Below are positions 3,741 through 24,588 of a stretch of DNA of 34,598 nucleotides, in pieces. The notes beneath the pieces were generated by a model. It was given only the letters and a program-made list of their open reading frames with translations, was not told the origin of the DNA and did no database searches. Location: IMG/VR virus record IMGVR_UViG_2541047807_000005, one strand, 5' to 3'. A program made the translations under genes and the position numbers. This DNA is from a virus (Duplodnaviria; Heunggongvirae; Uroviricota; Caudoviricetes). Numbering within the stretch: position 1 is the first letter of the stretch; each line of letters opens with the position of its first letter.

Positions 3741-3967
3741 TGGCTGATGCAATGGATCTCGTACAGCAGCGCGTTGAAGAAGAACGCCAGCGCCATATCC
3801 GTGCTGCCCGTGCCAAAACACCGGGCGTGTCTCGCGTGCTTTGCATTGAATGTGAAGCGCCAATTCCGCCAGCACGCCGCCGCGCCATTCCAGGAGTGCA
3901 GCTTTGCATTACCTGTCAGGAAATCGCAGAGCTGAAAGGCAAACATTACAACGGAGGTGCTGTATGA
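3740..3967 (+). CDS. TraR/DksA-family C4 zinc-finger protein
   Basis: CxxC...CxxC motif ([25 protein letters not shown]); start overlaps upstream stop. Confidence 0.7.
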
Positions 3968-4266
3968 CAGGGGCTGTGCGTATCCATCAATTAAAAATTG
4001 CACCTAAGTATTTCAACGCTGTGGTTGCAGGTCAAAAGACGGCTGAACTTCGTAAAGACGATCGTGGCTATAAAGTTGGTGATGTTCTTTCTCTTTGCGA
4101 ATGGAAGCATGGCGTATTTACGGGTAGGGAATGGGCCGCGGTTATCTCTCATGTGCTTCCGGTTAATGACGTCATGGCAGTTACAGAACAATGGGTGATG
4201 CTATCAATTCGCTCATTAACCCCATTAGAAGCTTTAGGATATGTTATTGCAGGAGGTGCTGTATGA
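3964..4266 (+). CDS. ASCH/DUF3850-like domain protein
   Basis: ATG 3964 with GGAGG RBS; motif [30 protein letters not shown] typical of ASCH-like phage proteins. Confidence 0.55.
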
Positions 4267-5120
4267 GCACCATCCTGAAATGGGCGGGTAATAAAACCAC
4301 CATTATGTCCGAACTGAAAAAATACCTTCCTGCTGGCACGCGACTGGTTGAACCTTTCGCGGGTTCTTGTGCTGTGATGATGGAGACGGATTACCCCAGC
4401 TATCTGGTTGCGGATATTAATCCTGATTTAATCAACCTCTATAAAAAGGTTGCTGCTGATTGTGAGGCGTTTATATCTCGTGCCAGAGCTTTATTTGAGG
4501 AAGCAAACAGAGAGGTGGCTTATTACAACATAAGGCAGGAGTTTAATTACTCCACTGAAATTACTGATTTCATGAAAGCGGTATATTTTCTGTATCTCAA
4601 TCGTCATGGTTACCGTGGGCTATGTCGCTATAACAAGAGCGGGTATTTCAACATTCCCTACGGTAATTATAAAAATCCGTATTTCCCTGAAAAAGAAATT
4701 CGCGCATTTGCAGAGAAAGCCCAGCGGGCAACGTTTATCTGCGCCAGCTTTGATGAAACGCTGGCGATGTTGAAGGCGGGGGATGTGGTGTATTGCGATC
4801 CGCTTTATGACGGTACGTTTTCCGGCTATCACACTGATGGCTTCACTGAAGATGACCAGTATCACCTGGCATCCGTTCTTGAACATCGATCATCTGAAGG
4901 TCATCCGGTCATTGTTTCTAACAGTGACACATCCCTGATCCGTTCGCTGTATCGCAATTTTACTCACCACTACATCAAGGCAAAACGCAGCATCGGCGTG
5001 GCAGCTGGTGAGAGTAAATCTGCAACAGAAATCATCGCTGTTTCCGGGCCGCGCTGCTGGGTAGGATTTGATCCTTTGCGTGGCGTGGATTGTTCCGTCG
5101 TGTACGGAGTGCGTGCATGA
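4263..5120 (+). CDS. dam: Dam-family DNA N6-adenine methyltransferase
   Basis: N-terminus LKWAGNK...EPFAGSCAV (SAM-binding) and catalytic-motif region VVYCDPLY; ATG 4263 with GGAGG RBS. Confidence 0.85.
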
Positions 5121-7531
5121 GCCATGCTGATATGAACAACTGCAGCGGCTTTAACGAGGTCGCCGCAGCATTCTCATGGAACAGCCCGAAAAAGGCCATT
5201 AACCCTTATCTGGACCCGGCGGAAGTTGCGCCGGTTTCTGCGCTTTCAAACCTGATCACTCTGTACGCTGCCGATAACGAGCAGGAACAACTGCGCCGCG
5301 AGGCACTGAGTGATCAGGTCTGGGAGCGTTATTTCTTTAATGAATCCCGTGATCCTGTCCAACGCGAAATGGAGCAGGATAAGCTAATTAGCCGGGCAAA
5401 GCTGGCGCATGAGCAGCAGCGTTTTAATCCAGACATGGCCATTCTGGCGGACGTCAACGCCCAGCCTTCCCATATCAGCAAGCCGCTGATGCAACGTATT
5501 AAATACTTCAGCAGCCTGGGCAGGCCAAAGGCTTATTCCCGCTATTTGCGTGAGACGATTAAGCCATGCTTGGAACGACTGGAGCATGTACGCGACAGTC
5601 AGCTATCCACTTCTTTTCGCTTTATGGCAAGCCATGAAGGGCTGGACGGCCTGCTGATCCTGCCTGAAATGAGTCAGGATCAGGTGAAACGCCTGTCCAC
5701 CTTGGTAGCTGCGCATATGAGCATGTGCCTTGATACAGCTTGTGGCGATTTGTATGCCACCGATGATGTTACGCCAGAAGAAATCCGCAAGACATGGGAA
5801 AAGGTGGCAGCGGAAACCCTGCGTCTGGATGTTATCCCGCCTGCGTTTGAGCAACTTTGTCGGAAAAGAAACCGCCGTAAACCCGTGCCTTATGAACTCA
5901 TTCCGGGTTCGCTGGCGCGTATGTTATGCGCCGACTGGTGGTATCGGAAATTATGGAAGATGCGTTGCGAATGGAGGGAAGAGCAGTTGCGTGCTGTTTG
6001 CCTGGTCAGCAAAAAAGCATCTCCCTATGTCAGCTATGAAGCCGTGATGCATAAACGTGAGCAGCGCCGTAAGTCGCTGGAGTTTTTCCGTTCTCATGAA
6101 CTGGTGAACGAAGACGGCGACACGCTGGATATGGAAGACGTGGTAAACGCCAGCAGCAGCAACCCTGCGCATCGCCGCAATGAGATGATGGCCTGTGTTA
6201 AAGGTCTGGAGCTTATCGCGGAAATGCGTGGTGACTGCGCCGTTTTCTACACCATCACCTGTCCGTCACGTTTCCATTCCACGCTAAATAACGGCAGGCC
6301 CAACCCGACCTGGACAAATGCGACGGTAAGACAAAGCAGTGATTATCTGGTCGGTATGTTTGCTGCATTTCGTAAGGCGATGCACAAAGCCGGATTACGC
6401 TGGTATGGCGTGCGGGTGGCTGAGCCGCATCATGACGGTACAGTTCACTGGCACCTGTTGTGTTTTATGCGCAAAAAAGATCGCCGCGCCATTACTGCTT
6501 TGTTGCGTAAGTTTGCCATTCGTGAAGACCGCGAGGAGCTGGGTAATAACACGGAACCACGCTTTAAGTCTGAGCTGATAAACCCGCGCAAAGGTACGCC
6601 AACAAGCTACATCGCGAAATACATCAGTAAGAACATTGACGGGCGTGGTCTGGCTGGCGAGATCAGCAAGGAAACGGGTAAATCCCTGCGTGATAACGCC
6701 GAATACGTTAATGCCTGGGCGTCTTTGCATCGTGTTCAGCAATTCCGCTTCTTTGGCATTCCGGGGCGTCAGGCTTACCGTGAACTGCGATTGCTGGCTG
6801 GTCAGGCGGCAAGGCAACAGGGGGACAAAAAAGCAGGTGCGCCGGTACTGGATAACCCGCGCCTTGATGCCATCCTGGCTGCCGCTGATGCTGGCTGTTT
6901 TGCCACCTACATCATGAAGCAGGGCGGCGTACTGGTTCCCCGCAAATATCACCTCATCAGAACCGCTTATGAAATCAACGAAGAGCCGACCGCCTATGGC
7001 GATCACGGTATTCGTATTTATGGCATCTGGTCACCCATTGCAGAGGGCAAGATCTGCACTCATGCGGTGAAGTGGAAAATGGTTCGTAAGGCCGTTGACA
7101 TTCAGGAGGCGGCAGCCGACCAGGGCGCTTGCGCCCCTTGGACTCGTGGCAATAACTGTCCCCTTGCTGAAAATTTGAACCAGCAGGAGAAAGATAAATC
7201 AGCTGATGGGGACACCAGAACGGACATTATCTGCATGGATGACAAGGAGTTGCACGATTATCTGCACAGTATGAGCAAAAAAGATCGCCGGGAACTGGCA
7301 GCAAGGTTACGCCTGGTGAAACCGAAACGGCGTAAAGACTACAAACAGCGAATTACAGACCATCAGCGACAGCAGCTTGTCTATGAACTGAAGTCCAGAG
7401 GATTTGATGGCAGCGAGAAAGAGGTCGAGTTGCTCCTTCGCGGTGGCAGTATTCCGTCAGGAGCAGGCCTGCGTATCTTCTATCGGAACCAGCGTCTGCA
7501 GGAGGATGATAAATGGCGGAACATGTATTAA
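5117..7531 (+). CDS. A: Replication initiation endonuclease gpA (rolling-circle Rep)
   Basis: 804 aa; HUH-like motif VHWHLL and active-site Tyr motif YIAKYISKN; synteny after early operon. Confidence 0.9.
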
Positions 7532-8245: not shown

Positions 8246-8986
8246 TCAGTTTTCTTTGAATTTTTCACTTAATCGTTTCGTCAATACTTCGACAGATTCT
8301 TTGCGACCGGAGAACAAGTCATTGACGACGTACTCCATAATCTCAAAAGCATCCTCAATGTCTTTGACTTTTACTTCATCGTAGGTATGGCTTCCGGCAT
8401 TTCCTAAAAATTTAATTGCCATAAGAGGTCTTGAAAACGATCCGTATAATTCAGGTAGCATCCCTAAACGGTGGTGTAGAGTTATGCGTTTGCCATTATC
8501 ATTACGTTCAGCTACATCCATAGCGGTTAGCATTCTTTCAACTGAAATTCGAATTAGGTTTGCTGCTGCGCCAGGCTGTATTAGGAAAATGGAAAATGAG
8601 GCTTCAAGCGGTTCGGTAATTTCTTCTGGGCATTTTTCAGGTATTTCGAAAGGATGCAGTGATGGGTAAAAGGTGAAAGGTCTGTGCCATTGATAGTACT
8701 CAATATCATTTCTTTCTTCATCCCAACCTTGTTCCCATCCACTCTTACCAGTACAGGCCACAACTTCACCACATTGCATTCTTGAACAGCGGGCCATGCA
8801 ACTGAAAATAGATGAATCCATTTCTAGTTCAAACCAATCTTCACTGCGGAATTTTCGGGTATCATGTGTGTCATACGAGACGAAACTTTCTTTAATGATC
8901 TGTAGGGTTTTCTGATTGCAGTTAGGGCAGGGCCACTCAACCTGCATATCGTGGAAAAACGCACCAGAGAGCTTGTGCACAGTCAT
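8246..8986 (-). CDS. Hypothetical Cys-rich protein (246 aa) at the tin/old accessory position; candidate defence gene
   Basis: ORF with GAGGAA RBS; N-terminal CPNC...C-x3-C-x4-C-x5-C cluster; AT-rich versus phage core; opposite strand to gene A. Confidence 0.6.
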   Translation of the reverse strand: MTVHKLSGAFFHDMQVEWPCPNCNQKTLQIIKESFVSYDTHDTRKFRSEDWFELEMDSSIFSCMARCSRMQCGEVVACTGKSGWEQGWDEERNDIEYYQWHRPFTFYPSLHPFEIPEKCPEEITEPLEASFSIFLIQPGAAANLIRISVERMLTAMDVAERNDNGKRITLHHRLGMLPELYGSFSRPLMAIKFLGNAGSHTYDEVKVKDIEDAFEIMEYVVNDLFSGRKESVEVLTKRLSEKFKEN

Positions 8987-9344: not shown

Positions 9345-10157
9345 ATGGGGCATGCTATGATCTTTCTAAGTCATAATCACCGTGACAAAAGGTTTGTAAG
9401 TGTTATAGCGGAAAAACTAGCAGATGTTTATGGGCGTGATAACGTATTCTACGATTCTTGGTCTATCCAACCCGGAGAGGGTATTATTGACAAGATGAAT
9501 TTAGGAATGGAGAATGTATCGTTCTTTTTCTTTTTTGTCACAGAAAATAGCTTGGCAAGTAACATGGTAAAAATGGAATGGCAAAATGCTTTAATTAAGG
9601 CATCGTCCGGGAAGTGTAAATTTATACCAATACGTTGCCAGAATATATCCTTGCCTGCTCTGCTTACTCAAACGCTATATATTGATCTTTATTCGTATGG
9701 GATCGATGTGGCAATAAGACAAATTATAGATGTCATTAATCAACAAAATACGTATATTCCTAATCCTGAGAAGTATTCAAACCTCTCCTATGATATTAAG
9801 GATGATGATGGGGGTAAGATAGTGAAATTATCAGCAATGGATTTTTTAGAACCAATTGCTGATTTTATGATGATTATGGATAATACAATTAAGCATGATG
9901 ATGTTGTTGTTATGGTCAATGGAGAAAGCTCATTCACTCAGGGGTTTATTGAAAATGCATCTTTAGAAAATGGTATGAAAGTAAGTGGTGCCACTGTTGG
10001 CCTAAATCGGGGGTTAACACCAACGATGCCAATGTATGTTTCTCTTAGGTTAAAGGATGGTTCACCTTTGAATATATTTGCGGTGCTACATCGAGTAAGT
10101 ACCGAGCGTTATGCTCCTATACCACATAAAGCCGATGATGCCTTTAGAGTAAAATAA
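9345..10157 (+). CDS. TIR-domain protein (270 aa) with uncharacterised C-terminal domain; candidate anti-phage effector
   Basis: N-terminal region IFLSHNHRDKRFV...DSWSIQPGEGIIDKM...FFFFFVTENSLASNMVKMEW matches bacterial TIR pattern; AT-rich; between cos-like site and portal gene. Confidence 0.7.
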   Translation: MGHAMIFLSHNHRDKRFVSVIAEKLADVYGRDNVFYDSWSIQPGEGIIDKMNLGMENVSFFFFFVTENSLASNMVKMEWQNALIKASSGKCKFIPIRCQNISLPALLTQTLYIDLYSYGIDVAIRQIIDVINQQNTYIPNPEKYSNLSYDIKDDDGGKIVKLSAMDFLEPIADFMMIMDNTIKHDDVVVMVNGESSFTQGFIENASLENGMKVSGATVGLNRGLTPTMPMYVSLRLKDGSPLNIFAVLHRVSTERYAPIPHKADDAFRVK

Positions 10158-18578: not shown

Positions 18579-19316
18579 TCATTCATTGTCAAATAATTTT
18601 TGCTCTTTCAATATTTGTGTCGAAAAATTATTGCTTATTAATTTTACAAGCTTGCCGCACAAATTAAATGAATATCTAAAATAATCTAAGTCAGGGATGA
18701 GGTATTCTTTTTCTTCAGAGGATATTCCTGCCTCTAATAATTTTTTTTCATATCTTTGGTCCTTCACCCAATTATTATGGACTCCTGTGTCTCGTCTTGC
18801 TTTAATTTCAATGTATTGTTTTAAGAGATGTTCTATTTTCTTTTTGTCTAAGCATAAGAGTTTGCATAATTTATTGATGTATTCTTTGGGTGATCCAAAT
18901 GTGAGACTCGCGACTCCTTCGTTGACTAGATAGTCAAAAAGTTCATCTTCAGATAATGACTTAAACACCCCATAATCACACTTAATTTTATTTAGTTTTT
19001 CTGGATTGATCCTGAAGGTCAACTTCATGATTTCAATAATGTAATCTTCAAATGCTGAAACAAGCGAACTAAAGCACAATGATGGCATATGTTTTGTTAT
19101 TAAATCATGCCGTATTCCTTTATCTGAGATTTCAGGTGAATGTTTTTCCAGAAAGCATTCAAGATTTGTATAAGCCTCATAAAGCTGAGGGTTAGTTTCC
19201 TCATTGGCGTGAGAGATGGCAATGTTTTGAAATATAATTGTTCTGAATAAAATATCAGCTTTAATAAAATATGATGATGTGATTTTATCCAGGAAGAGAT
19301 AATTATCGGAGTGCAT
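18579..19316 (-). CDS. AT-rich moron protein (245 aa) with R-x4-H HEPN-like motif; candidate abortive-infection/toxin RNase
   Basis: ORF opposite to the late operon between S and V; GAGGAA RBS; motif ARRDTGVH at residues 174-180 (coords ~18777-18797); strongly AT-rich. Confidence 0.6.
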   Translation of the reverse strand: MHSDNYLFLDKITSSYFIKADILFRTIIFQNIAISHANEETNPQLYEAYTNLECFLEKHSPEISDKGIRHDLITKHMPSLCFSSLVSAFEDYIIEIMKLTFRINPEKLNKIKCDYGVFKSLSEDELFDYLVNEGVASLTFGSPKEYINKLCKLLCLDKKKIEHLLKQYIEIKARRDTGVHNNWVKDQRYEKKLLEAGISSEEKEYLIPDLDYFRYSFNLCGKLVKLISNNFSTQILKEQKLFDNE

Positions 19317-19397: not shown

Positions 19398-19988
19398 ATG
19401 ATACAGGCCATGAACGCACAATTAACCGAAATCATGCGCCTTATCACCAACCTGATCCGCACAGGTGTAGTCACCGAAGTGGACCGGGAAAACTGGCTTT
19501 GCCGGGTGAAAACGGGCGACCTTGAAACCAACTGGATTAGCTGGCTGACGCTGCGTGCCGGGAATGCCCGCACATGGTGGCGACCATCGGAAGGTGAGCA
19601 GGTGGTGCTGCTGAGTCTGGGAGGCAATCTGGAAACCGCCTTTGCGTTGCCCGCTGTCTATTCGAATCAGTTCGCTCCACCGTCGACGTCGGCGGACGCT
19701 TGCGTGACAGAGCATCCTGACGGCGGCTGGTTTGAATATGAACCCGCCACCGGGCGCTGGTATGTCAGGGGCATCAAATCAATGGTCATTGAGGCCGCTG
19801 ACAACATCACCATGAAAACCAGTGAGTTTGTACTGGAGGCTGACCGCACGAGCATTAACAGCGAAGTGGTGATCAATGGTGGCGTTACCCAGGGCGGCGG
19901 AGCGATGAGTTCTAACGGGATCGTGGTTGATGCGCATCAGCATACTGGCGTCCTGAAAGGCGGCGATACAACCGGAGGCCCGGTATGA
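19398..19988 (+). CDS. V: Baseplate spike/assembly protein gpV (alternative start ATG 19410)
   Basis: N-terminus aligns with P2 gpV (LIRTGVVTEVD...CRVKTG); synteny. Confidence 0.85.
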   Translation: MIQAMNAQLTEIMRLITNLIRTGVVTEVDRENWLCRVKTGDLETNWISWLTLRAGNARTWWRPSEGEQVVLLSLGGNLETAFALPAVYSNQFAPPSTSADACVTEHPDGGWFEYEPATGRWYVRGIKSMVIEAADNITMKTSEFVLEADRTSINSEVVINGGVTQGGGAMSSNGIVVDAHQHTGVLKGGDTTGGPV

Positions 19989-20266
19989 CGCTTTATAGCG
20001 GGATGAACAATACCAGCGGCAAAGTCATTACTGATATTGACCATCTGCGCCAGTCGGTGCGGGACATTCTGCTGACACCGCAGGGTAGCCGTATTGCCCG
20101 TCGTGAATATGGTTCCCTGCTGTCGGCACTGATAGACCAGCCACAAAATCCAGCATTACGCCTGCAGGTCATGTCGGCAGTGTATGTGGCGCTGAGCGGG
20201 CAGCGTAATAACGGTGTGCCTGTTTCCCTTTCCGTATCAACAGGAGCAGAGAATGGCAGTGATTGA
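19985..20266 (+). CDS. W: Baseplate protein gpW (lysozyme-like fold family)
   Basis: N-terminal region resembles P2 gpW (DIDHLRQSVRDILLTPQGSRIARREYGSLL); shorter than P2 gpW. Confidence 0.75.
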   Translation: MTLYSGMNNTSGKVITDIDHLRQSVRDILLTPQGSRIARREYGSLLSALIDQPQNPALRLQVMSAVYVALSGQRNNGVPVSLSVSTGAENGSD

Positions 20267-21759: not shown

Positions 21760-23165
21760 GCACAAAATTTTATACCCTGCTGACGGATATTGGCGCGGCG
21801 AAACTTGCCAGCGCCGCCGCGCTCGGTGTGCCGCTAAAAATTACCCATATGGCGGTGGGCGATGGCGGCGGAGTATTGCCAACGCCGGACGCAAAGCAGA
21901 CGGCACTGGTAAATGAGAAACGCCGGGCTGCGCTGAATATGCTTTATATCGACCTGCAGAACAGCAGCCAGATTATTGCTGAACAGGTGATCCCTGAAAA
22001 CGAGGGCGGTTGGTGGATACGTGAAGTGGGCCTGTTTGATGAGTCAGGGGCATTGATTGCCGTGGGCAACTGCCCGGAAAGCTATAAGCCGCAACTGGCT
22101 GAAGGCAGCGGGCGCACCCAGACCGTGCGTATGGTGTTGATTACCAGCAGCACGGACAATATCACCCTGAAAATCGACCCTGCCGTAGTGCTGGCAACCC
22201 GCAAGTATGTGGATGACAAGGCACTGGAGCTGAAGGTGTACGTGGATGACCAGCTGGCAAAACACCTTGCCGCACCGGACCCGCATTCACAATATGCACA
22301 GAAAGAAAGTCCGACGTTTACCGGGACACCAAAAGCGCCAACGCCTGCGGCAGGCAATAACACCACGCAGGTTGCGACCACTGCGTTTGTTCAGGCGGCA
22401 CTGACGGCTCTTATTAATGGTGCGCCAGCCACGCTGGACACACTGAAAGAAATAGCCGCAGCCATTAACAATGACCCGAAATTCAGTACCACCATTAATG
22501 ATGCGCTGGCACTCAAAGCGCCGCTGTCGAGTCCTGCACTTACCGGGACGCCGACAGCCCCCACGGCGGCACAGTCGGTCAACAATACACAGATTGCCAC
22601 CACGGCTTTTGTGAAATCGGCGATTGCGGCAATGGTGGGTTCTGCACCTGCTGCACTGGATACACTGAACGAACTGGCGGCGGCGCTGGGAAATGCCCCG
22701 AACTTTGCCACGACAATGTTGAATGCTCTGTCAGGTAAACAACCGCTGGACAATACGCTGACTAATTTGAGTGGAAAGGATGTAGCAGGTCTTCTCACAT
22801 ACCTTGGTTTGGGAGAAGCGGCTAAAAGGAATGTAGGTATAGGGGCGAATCAGATACCTGATATGAGCCTGTTCGCGTCAATTAATACCGTAACGGCTGC
22901 TGCGCAAAAATTTCCGTCTGGATTAATTTTACAGTGCGGTCAGTTGAATGGTGCCCCGAATGTATCTTCAACATACGGGATGAGGTTTCCGATGACGTTC
23001 TCAAGAGTCATTGCTGTCGTAGTTACATTGAACGTTACTGGCGCGGCAGGGCAGCCGACTGTATCGGCGACAAGTGTCCAGAACACTGGATTTAATATTA
23101 CGGTGTCGCCCGGTTCAGGATATGGTTCATCTGCTGATGCGTATTACATTGCAATGGGATATTAA
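21756..23165 (+). CDS. H: Tail fibre protein gpH (conserved N-terminal part, AT-rich variable C-terminal part from ~22800)
   Basis: 469 aa; Ala/Thr-rich repeats; composition shift at the candidate crossover site. Confidence 0.85.
22792..22817. other. Candidate Gin/Hin/Cin-type inversion crossover site TTCTCACATACCTTGGTTTGGGAGAA inside gene H
   Basis: 26-bp imperfect palindrome with ACC..GGTTT core resembling hix/gix/cix sites, at the constant/variable junction of the tail fibre gene. Confidence 0.45.
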
Positions 23166-23169
23166 CGAA

Positions 23170-23589
23170 ATGTCATATTTTTATTCTGCATCGACAAACG
23201 GATTTTATTCGACTGAATTTCACGGCACCAATATTCCTGATGATGCAGTGGAAATCTCGGAATCAGAGTGGAAAACACTGATTAATTCACAGAGTGTAAC
23301 AAAAATGATTACCTGTGGTGAGAACGGTCACCCTGTCATTGTTGACCGTCCTTCTCCAACACCAGAACAATTAGCCTTAATAAATAATGAAAAGAAATCT
23401 GCACTGATAGCAGAGGCAACGAATGTAATAGCGCCGCTTCAGGATGCGGTTGATTTAGATATGGCAACAGATGATGAAACGAAACTGTTACTGGCATGGA
23501 AAAAATATCGCGTGCTATTGATGCGTGTTAATACTTCAACAGCACTCGATATTGAATGGCCTACGTCTCCGGCAGTTCAGGCCCGATGA
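23170..23589 (+). CDS. G: Tail fibre assembly protein gpG (Tfa)
   Basis: ATG 23170 just after H stop; N-terminus [17 protein letters not shown] typical of Tfa chaperones. Confidence 0.75.
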
Positions 23590-24154
23590 CATCCGGCGCG
23601 GTGCTGGTATCTGTTGCCGTCACCGCATCAATGTAATCCAGCACAGCGTTAAGCCGGGTGGTTTCTGTTTGCGACAGTTTTCGCCCGGTCTGCAATTTCA
23701 ACTGAATCAGACTGATGGAAGCCATAGCAGCATCAATCAGTGACTGGCGCTGTACTTCTGCCGTTTCTACTGCGGCACCGTGTTGTGCCTCAGTATCTGT
23801 CACCCATTTCTCACCATCCCATTTATCGTATGGCGTTAACGGTGAAAGCGTGACATAACCGTCTTTGATGGCACCGATATAATCCACAGTAATAGCTGCG
23901 CCATTTTCTGTTGAGTAAACAGTCTCATTGCGATGGTCTTCTTCATGGCTCCATCCCTTGCCCGTAAATACTGCCACTTTCCCCGGAATGTTTTCGCCCG
24001 GGGCAATACCAGTGGAACAGGCGGGCATACTTACACCAGTATTAATATATTCATCAGAGCAGCCCATATACTCAGATGTTTCAGCATCATAATAAAAACA
24101 ACGCATATCGCCCGGCACTGTAGCCAGCCCATTTTCATCAAAAACAGGTTTCAT
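23561..24154 (-). CDS. Alternative tail fibre assembly protein (inverted-orientation Tfa, U-prime-like), orphan
   Basis: Tfa-like N-terminus ([29 protein letters not shown]); convergent with G, 3-prime ends overlap; no cognate alternative fibre C-terminus present. Confidence 0.7.
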
Positions 24155-24179
24155 TATTTAGCCCTCACCAGAAAGTTAA

Positions 24180-24437
24180 ATGCAATATTTTTTTTATGTC
24201 ATGGGTGCTCTGGCTGAAATGGAACGCGAACTGATAGTTGAACGCACCAGGGCAGGGCTGGCTGCAGCTCGTGCCAAAGGCAGAGTAGGTGGACGCCGTA
24301 CTAAGTTGACCACCGAACAGTGGGCACAGATTGGACGTTTACTCGAGGCCGGAGAATCAAGACAACGTATTGCACTGATTTTTGATGTGGGCGTTTCTAC
24401 CATTTATAGAAAATTTCCGGCGAATAAGAGCAATTAA
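24180..24437 (+). pseudogene. Truncated serine DNA invertase (Gin/Hin/Pin family), C-terminal ~85 aa only
   Basis: FFYVMGALAEMERELIVERTRAGLAAARAKGRVGGR... matches the C-terminal half of Gin; N-terminal catalytic domain (~100 aa incl. active-site Ser) absent. Confidence 0.8.
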
Positions 24438-24494
24438 TCGCTCTGAATCAGCATTATTTTGATTATCCCTGCAAGTAGACAAATACCCTCATTT

Positions 24495-24512
24495 TGTATG
24501 AATAACTGTACA
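24495..24512. promoter_or_regulatory. Late-promoter activator dyad TGT-N12-ACA upstream of FI
   Basis: TGTATGAATAACTGTACA centred ~85 bp upstream of FI start codon. Confidence 0.55.
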
Positions 24513-24588
24513 ACTACACTTAGCTGTTTGTCAGGCACAATCACTTCAACATAGGGCGAAGCCTAATCCAATCAGGAGGTTCGCCACT

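Follow-up and report, generated by a model that had tools for sequence, protein, structure and literature searches.

The window, a stretch of 34,598 nucleotides, holds a P2/186-like E. coli prophage and, to the right of it, roughly 3 kb of host sequence (ybjL, ybjM). It carries a dam-like gene whose catalytic motif IV reads DPLY instead of DPPY. The product belongs to the orphan Dam-type methyltransferases for N6-adenine in GATC. The DPLY allele is in circulation, yet confined to a narrow lineage; it is rare, recent and lineage-specific. Most likely the allele is a hypomorph or a null, and not a new kind of methylase or a new specificity. The gene itself is of a known kind, with a point mutation that is rare, recent and probably damaging.

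The dam-like gene and its motif IV

The gene lies on the + strand at 4263-5120, with an ATG start at 4263 and a TGA stop at 5118-5120 in both the sequence and the ORF call, and encodes 285 amino acids. A Shine-Dalgarno-like AGGAGG (4251-4256, +) stands 6 nt before the ATG. Profiles place the product in the D12 class of Dam-family N6-adenine DNA methyltransferases: PF02086 is covered completely (positions 1-253 of 253, E=8.9e-74, 248.8 bits against a cutoff of 22), and, at 313.6 bits, the score for NCBIfam TIGR00571 'dam' is well above its cutoff of 114.85. With phmmer against PDB, residues 4-263 match E. coli Dam (EcoDam, 2G1P/4GOL) at E=9.4e-72, and with a match of this order (E=1e-71) to solved EcoDam structures the fold is given; a lone Pro to Leu change is too small for AlphaFold to resolve. 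The host-Dam equivalog NF008152 scores 283.1 bits, below its cutoff of 441, so the protein belongs to a phage-clade paralogue and is not an orthologue of the chromosomal Dam. Among PADLOC models, 'orphan methyltransferase' fits best (E=3.5e-109), and the gene has the setting of an orphan, inside a phage operon and without an adjacent restriction gene.

The first-pass annotation had described a phage Dam homologue that is well conserved apart from motif IV, naming LKWAGNK and FAGSCAV, and both blocks are present. The N-terminal conserved block ILKWAGNK (4272-4295, +; residues 4-11) matches EcoDam 7-14 in the alignment, K9 included, and its K6, W7, G9 and K11 are invariant within 200 clade proteins. 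The motif I region EPFAGSC (4350-4370, +) aligns as an AdoMet-binding loop of the FxGxG type, with Cys for the last Gly. It is part of EPFAGSCAV at residues 30-38, in which E30, P31, F32 and G34 are invariant among the clade proteins. EPFAGSC and the following ADIN block align with EPFVGAG and ADIN of EcoDam, so that AdoMet motif I and the acidic residue supplied by ADIN are both in place; F32, G34, D51 and N53 do not vary among the 200 clade proteins. The order of motif X/I, target-recognition region and motif IV is that of the alpha group, collinear with the EcoDam and DpnM structures.

Motif IV (4797-4808, +) is encoded by GAT (4797-4799), CCG (4800-4802), CTT (4803-4805) and TAT (4806-4808), that is, D179-P180-L181-Y182. 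In the HMMER alignment these residues fall column for column on EcoDam D181-P182-P183-Y184. The reading of DPLY in place of DPPY that started this work is correct in coordinates and in frame. The family motif, (D/N/S)-P-P-(Y/F/W), does not accommodate D-P-L-Y. As the gene is a single base away from a canonical member, its Dam ancestry is certain, and it is active membership of the family that is doubtful.

EcoDam (PDB 2G1P, 4GOL, 4RTJ), an alpha-group enzyme of the D12 class, is collinear with the window protein and has the same order of KWAG block, motif I, recognition region and motif IV. Unlike EcoDam, the window Dam is prophage-borne, has DPLY and not DPPY, and carries a C-terminal extension of about 20 aa. 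It also has a 5-residue deletion right after motif IV, DPLY-DGTF against DPPYAPLSATANF, which is common to the whole phage clade. The site of this deletion (4809-4823, residues 183-187, DGTFS) is thus a feature of the Dam clade of P2-like phages and is not specific to DPLY.

As for the DNA itself, the Asp-Pro codons of motif IV (GAT CC) contain a GATC site at 4797-4800, 4 nt before the mutated base. A GATC within the sequence that encodes the enzyme's own catalytic motif is probably a trivial consequence of the codons.

Origin and rarity of the allele

The sister allele of the window gene is the dam of E. coli LR-50 and C51 (WP_032291301.1), which has DPPY and differs from the window at two bases only, 4804 and 5077. 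At 4804 (+) the window has T and the sister C, and this causal SNP changes CCT to CTT, giving P181L. At 5077 (+), comparison with relatives reveals a second private nonsynonymous C to T change (TCG to TTG, S272L), located in the C-terminal tail and outside the part aligned with EcoDam. The catalytic domain is otherwise identical to that of the DPPY sister, P181L being the sole difference there, and no compensating change was found in the catalytic domain against the LR-50/C51 allele. IMG/VR L054 shows 0 synonymous and 2 nonsynonymous differences from the window dam.

P181L occurs without S272L in E. coli SCU-115, Rb-23, TUM14697 and 1002W03, on one IMG/VR contig (L011) and on one metagenome contig (L166), and the corresponding protein is WP_000104188.1 in RefSeq. 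Since S272L is missing from these other DPLY carriers, P181L came first and S272L followed in the window's branch. A single C to T transition in a recent sub-lineage accounts for the derived DPLY state in this dam of the early (replication) operon.

More distant relatives have the ancestral motif. The P2-like Dams of Felsduovirus type (Salmonella phage RE2010, SopEPhi, Klebsiella phage 4LV2017) are the same gene at the same position, and the window dam sits as theirs do, between a TraR/DksA-like gene (here together with DUF3850) and the gpA replication gene. Nucleotide identity of the window dam is 95-96% to RE2010 and Klebsiella prophages, the nearest deposited Felsduovirus-type sequences, and 99.8% to LR-50/C51. 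The Felsduovirus-type Dams and WP_032291301.1 all have DPPY, in contrast to the window allele with P181L and S272L.

The allele is rare. Of 5,426 complete E. coli genomes, 1,238 (~23%) have a homologous dam and four have the exact DPLY 61-mer, which makes four of the 1,157 that have this segment; none of 43 phage records has the 61-mer. Three of the four complete DPLY genomes are Japanese isolates, with 0-8 base differences over 40 kb. In SCU-115 the P181L allele adjoins a diverged structural module, which indicates that the allele has outlasted some time and recombination. The DPLY prophages with P181L and without S272L (Rb-23, TUM14697, 1002W03 and SCU-115) look complete. Both observations count against a hypomorph or null.

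A difference of one base from the common allele is what a sequencing or assembly error in the window would also look like. This explanation has practically nothing left to it, as four complete E. coli genomes, sequenced independently by different laboratories in the USA and Japan, have the identical CTT codon, which is found again on one IMG/VR contig, one ENA metagenome contig and a contig of the JGI collection. In addition, the exact 285-aa window protein is found on 49 contigs (116 index blocks), including one contig of 4.5 Mb. The recurrence of the codon in independent genomes and contigs establishes that the base call is real.

It had also been suggested that DPLY could simply be a family variant, in which case an alignment should show it to be common among homologues. 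No DPLY was found in 120 close or 148 diverse representatives, no DPLY homologue exists in our searches outside one E. coli prophage lineage, and the nearest alleles have DPPY. The 120 closest representatives of 90% clusters comprise 116 with DPPY, one with DPQY, one with DPAY and two in which an intact motif is missing. The 148 diverse representatives, at 50% identity and drawn from a library of 1.8 billion proteins, include 135 with DPPY, four with DPPF and one with DSPY, and no intact motif among them has a residue other than Pro at the third position. Within the clade, 198 of 200 unique proteins have Pro at column 181. Together, the motif IV tallies over these close, diverse and pooled relatives rule out the family variant.

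Searches with degenerate patterns give the same picture. In IMG/VR, YCDPPYDGT occurs on at least 120 contigs and YCDPLYDGT on one. Scans for non-Pro codons in the YCDPxYDG context covered both codon classes in IMG/VR, and CDN codons (Leu/His/Gln/Arg) in GTDB species representatives and JGI metagenomes; among Dams, they returned this E. coli lineage only. The scans also met ORFs of about 830 aa with VYCDPLYDG, which were considered as natural DPLY methylases and rejected; they have a hydrophobic, signal-like N-terminus and no similarity to Dam beyond the motif. By eye, they resemble secreted solute-binding lipoproteins and would be chance matches. A literature search on DPLY and methyltransferases found nothing relevant. 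The idea of a Dam subfamily with DPLY as its regular motif gained no support from any of this and is refuted by the DPPY found across clade and family, the other YCDPLYDG matches being unrelated proteins; we give it virtually no chance.

Two other alleles that change the second Pro were found, DPQY on one contig of Enterobacter roggenkampii and DPAY in Cronobacter sakazakii, where five contigs have it. They stand in different backgrounds, and each has DPPY sisters.

Probable effect of P181L and alternative explanations

In motif IV of m6A DNA methyltransferases, N6 of the flipped adenine is bound and activated by the Asp/Asn together with the first Pro, through its main-chain carbonyl, and the Tyr gives a hydrogen bond through its amide and stacks its ring on the adenine (PMC3814359). 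The second Pro makes no such contact with the adenine. The Pro-Pro pair holds the backbone of the motif IV loop in place, so a change of the second Pro to Leu is expected to loosen the loop and to lower the positioning of AdoMet and adenine, and with it kcat. On this basis we infer reduced or lost activity, and the proposal in the first-pass annotation that DPLY could alter activity is plausible.

Conservation points in the same direction. Monomethylating enzymes with (N/D)PP(Y/F/W) and dimethylating enzymes of the KsgA/Erm class alike keep the second Pro (PMC3814359). The latter, m6,2A rRNA dimethyltransferases with motif IV (A/S/N)(L/I/V)P(Y/F), are active with a hydrophobic residue for a proline (PMC3814359). 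It is the first Pro that KsgA/Erm replace, keeping the second, and DPLY is the reverse, so this precedent does not apply and DPLY is left without an active precedent among those found. Scored with an HMM of 113 diverse Dams, P181L loses 6.6 bits and D179A 4.9 bits; the equivalent of D179A in EcoDam, D181A, serves as a catalytically dead control (PMC9895073). The catalytic-Asp mutants EcoDam D181A, CcrM D39A and RlmJ D164A, likewise substitutions within the (D/N)PP(Y/F/W) loop of an intact enzyme, have no detectable activity (PMC9895073, PMC3814359). These engineered mutants lose the catalytic Asp, whereas the window allele keeps the Asp, the first Pro and the Tyr and loses the second, structural Pro.

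The literature searched, outside of which lie the classic EcoDam and T4 Dam mutagenesis papers, gave no activity measurement for a second-proline mutant of Dam. Mutants of the first proline in T4 Dam, P172A/T, reportedly retain much of their kcat while their Km for AdoMet rises, so activity may survive the loss of a proline from the motif IV loop. The natural pair of P181 and L181 proteins, otherwise identical, could be used to gauge what the second Pro contributes to DPPY, a contribution for which we found no report.

In terms of selection, the clade evolves under purifying selection: in 49 pairwise comparisons, the median dN/dS is 0.17. The DPLY lineage has accumulated 2 nonsynonymous and 0 synonymous changes since the DPPY sister, a pattern that arithmetic from site counts makes about 4x likelier under neutrality than under omega = 0.17. 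Relaxed selection cannot be proved from numbers as low as 2:0.

The first-pass annotation had further raised an altered specificity. No sign of it was found: the part that aligns with the DNA-recognition region of EcoDam is the same as in the DPPY sister, and a change of specificity appears unlikely with this region untouched. The residues reported to contact GATC in the EcoDam-DNA structure, K9, Y119, L122, R124 and P134, have conserved counterparts here in K6, Y117, L120, R122 and P132.

How such an allele may persist can be understood from its context. The dam gene lies in the early lytic operon and, by analogy with the regulation of phages 186 and P2, should be silent in the lysogen. Every E. 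coli host makes its own Dam. The allele may thus persist because its gene belongs to a lytic early operon and because host Dam makes it redundant, and the window's copy may keep it because this prophage is already decaying. Host Dam masks any phenotype of the phage Dam in the methylome of a lysogen, and since the host supplies the enzyme, the 122 GATC sites of the prophage are methylated regardless. This number compares with 115 +/- 9 expected, so that the sites are neither depleted nor enriched, and GATC avoidance or enrichment offers no clue to the role of this Dam.

A neutral polymorphism would leave the DPLY Dam methylating GATC at near wild-type level, with the second Pro serving stability or folding kinetics and not catalysis. 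The groups that contact the adenine are indeed intact (PMC3814359), the allele sits in otherwise intact-looking prophages of four complete genomes from two countries, and DPQY and DPAY provide two further natural changes of the same Pro. However, this Pro is retained in all but two of the clade members and in every diverse relative whose motif is intact, under the low omega given above, and the profile penalty of P181L exceeds that of a known dead mutant. The non-Pro alleles themselves are all rare tips with DPPY sisters, which is the pattern of mildly deleterious and not of tolerated variants. We regard neutrality as unlikely, although it is the main rival of a hypomorph or null. The opposite possibility, that loss of the second Pro is adaptive, would require attenuated Dam dosage (avoiding mutator effects or toxicity), a methylation-dead GATC binder, or an altered target or product. 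It was encouraged by the first 104 close representatives, where, over 31 family-invariant columns, rare deviants occurred at column 181 only (Q, A and the window's L). Once the sample was doubled to 200 proteins this signal of a recurrent, selected substitution was lost: deviants appear elsewhere too (F109L, R122H, N130S, G134D and N220S twice), against two at column 181, and 97 IMG/VR genes add N113T and G134E. With sporadic deviants at other invariant columns the second Pro is not special. These variants are rare tip alleles, the recognition-aligned region is that of the DPPY sister and the GATC sites are present in the expected number, all of which makes an adaptive loss very unlikely indeed.

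A related claim would be that the DPLY enzyme is not dead, being either fully active or changed in behaviour (GATC binding or flipping without transfer, processivity, product) in a way selected in P2-like prophages. We consider this highly improbable. A fully active DPLY enzyme would mean that the second Pro of (D/N/S)PP(Y/F/W), conserved at 99%, is dispensable for N6-adenine methylation; if changed behaviour were true, the DPQY and DPAY alleles would be parallel cases. In the wider sample, prophage Dam genes show a low background of missense alleles that are probably damaging, DPLY being one.

Other prophage Dams with probable loss-of-function changes came to light in the same set. In one (P0011), two frameshifts disrupt motif IV, and another (P0318) has R122H, at the equivalent of EcoDam R124. 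The proteins P0355, P0307 and P0321 have G134D, F109L and N130S. Sporadic damage to prophage dam is not rare.

Orphan Dams of P2-like prophages are common and routinely annotated, and the DPLY allele already has a RefSeq record. Pipelines label the gene 'DNA adenine methylase' in spite of the damaged loop, and so inferences about methylomes or defence evasion should not assume an active phage Dam.

Prophage context and neighbouring genes

In E. coli SCU-115, Rb-23, TUM14697 and 1002W03, prophages nearly identical to that of the window lie between rcdA and ybjL; those of SCU-115 and Rb-23 match the window at 99.5-99.97% identity. In the RefSeq annotation of these near-identical prophages, the early order is integrase, CI, CII, Fil, DUF5347, DUF2732, TraR/DksA, DUF3850, Dam, gpA and DinI-like, followed by P2-type portal, terminase, capsid, lysis, baseplate, tail and ogr genes. 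An integrase, an early region with CI/Apl-CII-Fil, gpA, structural genes in P2 order and ogr identify the element as a temperate phage of the P2/186 type.

Upstream of dam is a DUF3850/ASCH-like gene (3964-4266, +) encoding 100 aa with a PUA fold (PF12961 E=8.9e-24, ASCH E=1.4e-5, and the annotation of an identical locus). Downstream is a gpA-type replication endonuclease of 804 aa (5117-7531, +), from the ORF, PF05840 Phage_GPA in an identical locus, and RefSeq. The DUF3850 stop overlaps the dam start in an ATGA at 4263-4266, and the dam stop overlaps the gpA start in another at 5117-5120. With overlapping stop and start codons on both sides, the three genes form a tight unit that is probably translationally coupled.

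Relatives with a dam of about 97% identity have TraR/DksA as the only gene annotated beside it. That DUF3850 is unannotated there suggests an insertion/deletion polymorphism of this gene. With a DNA methylase as its neighbour, an ASCH-type domain might serve to read modified bases or to process them.

The baseplate gene W (gp25-like; ORF 19985-20266, +) has a 78-bp in-frame deletion of 26 codons when compared to Rb-23 and SCU-115, at about 20186-20197, which leaves 93 aa against 119. An 11-bp direct repeat flanks the deletion. From this lesion, the window's prophage copy is probably defective for tail assembly.

Between the DinI-like and portal genes, two cargo genes were found. The first (8246-8986, -) encodes a DUF4145 protein (Pfam E=4.9e-13) with a weak PADLOC match to PD-T7-4 (E=1.6e-5), and the second (9345-10157, +) a 270-aa TIR-domain protein (TIR_2 E=4.1e-23) with weak TIR-NLR/ThsB-like PADLOC matches. 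Both are candidate anti-phage defence cargo in a variable region of the prophage.

What looks like a second variable cargo site is found between the virion-morphogenesis gene and the baseplate gene V, where a 245-aa ORF (18579-19316, -) is without a Pfam or PADLOC match. The same site holds a hypothetical gene in Rb-23 and two different hypothetical genes in SCU-115.

Lastly, at about 23074-24550 there are two opposed tail-fibre-assembly genes and then a fragment of an invertase-type recombinase, whose N-terminus is missing per RefSeq in SCU-115 and Rb-23. What is left here looks like a former host-range switch by tail-fibre inversion, now locked.
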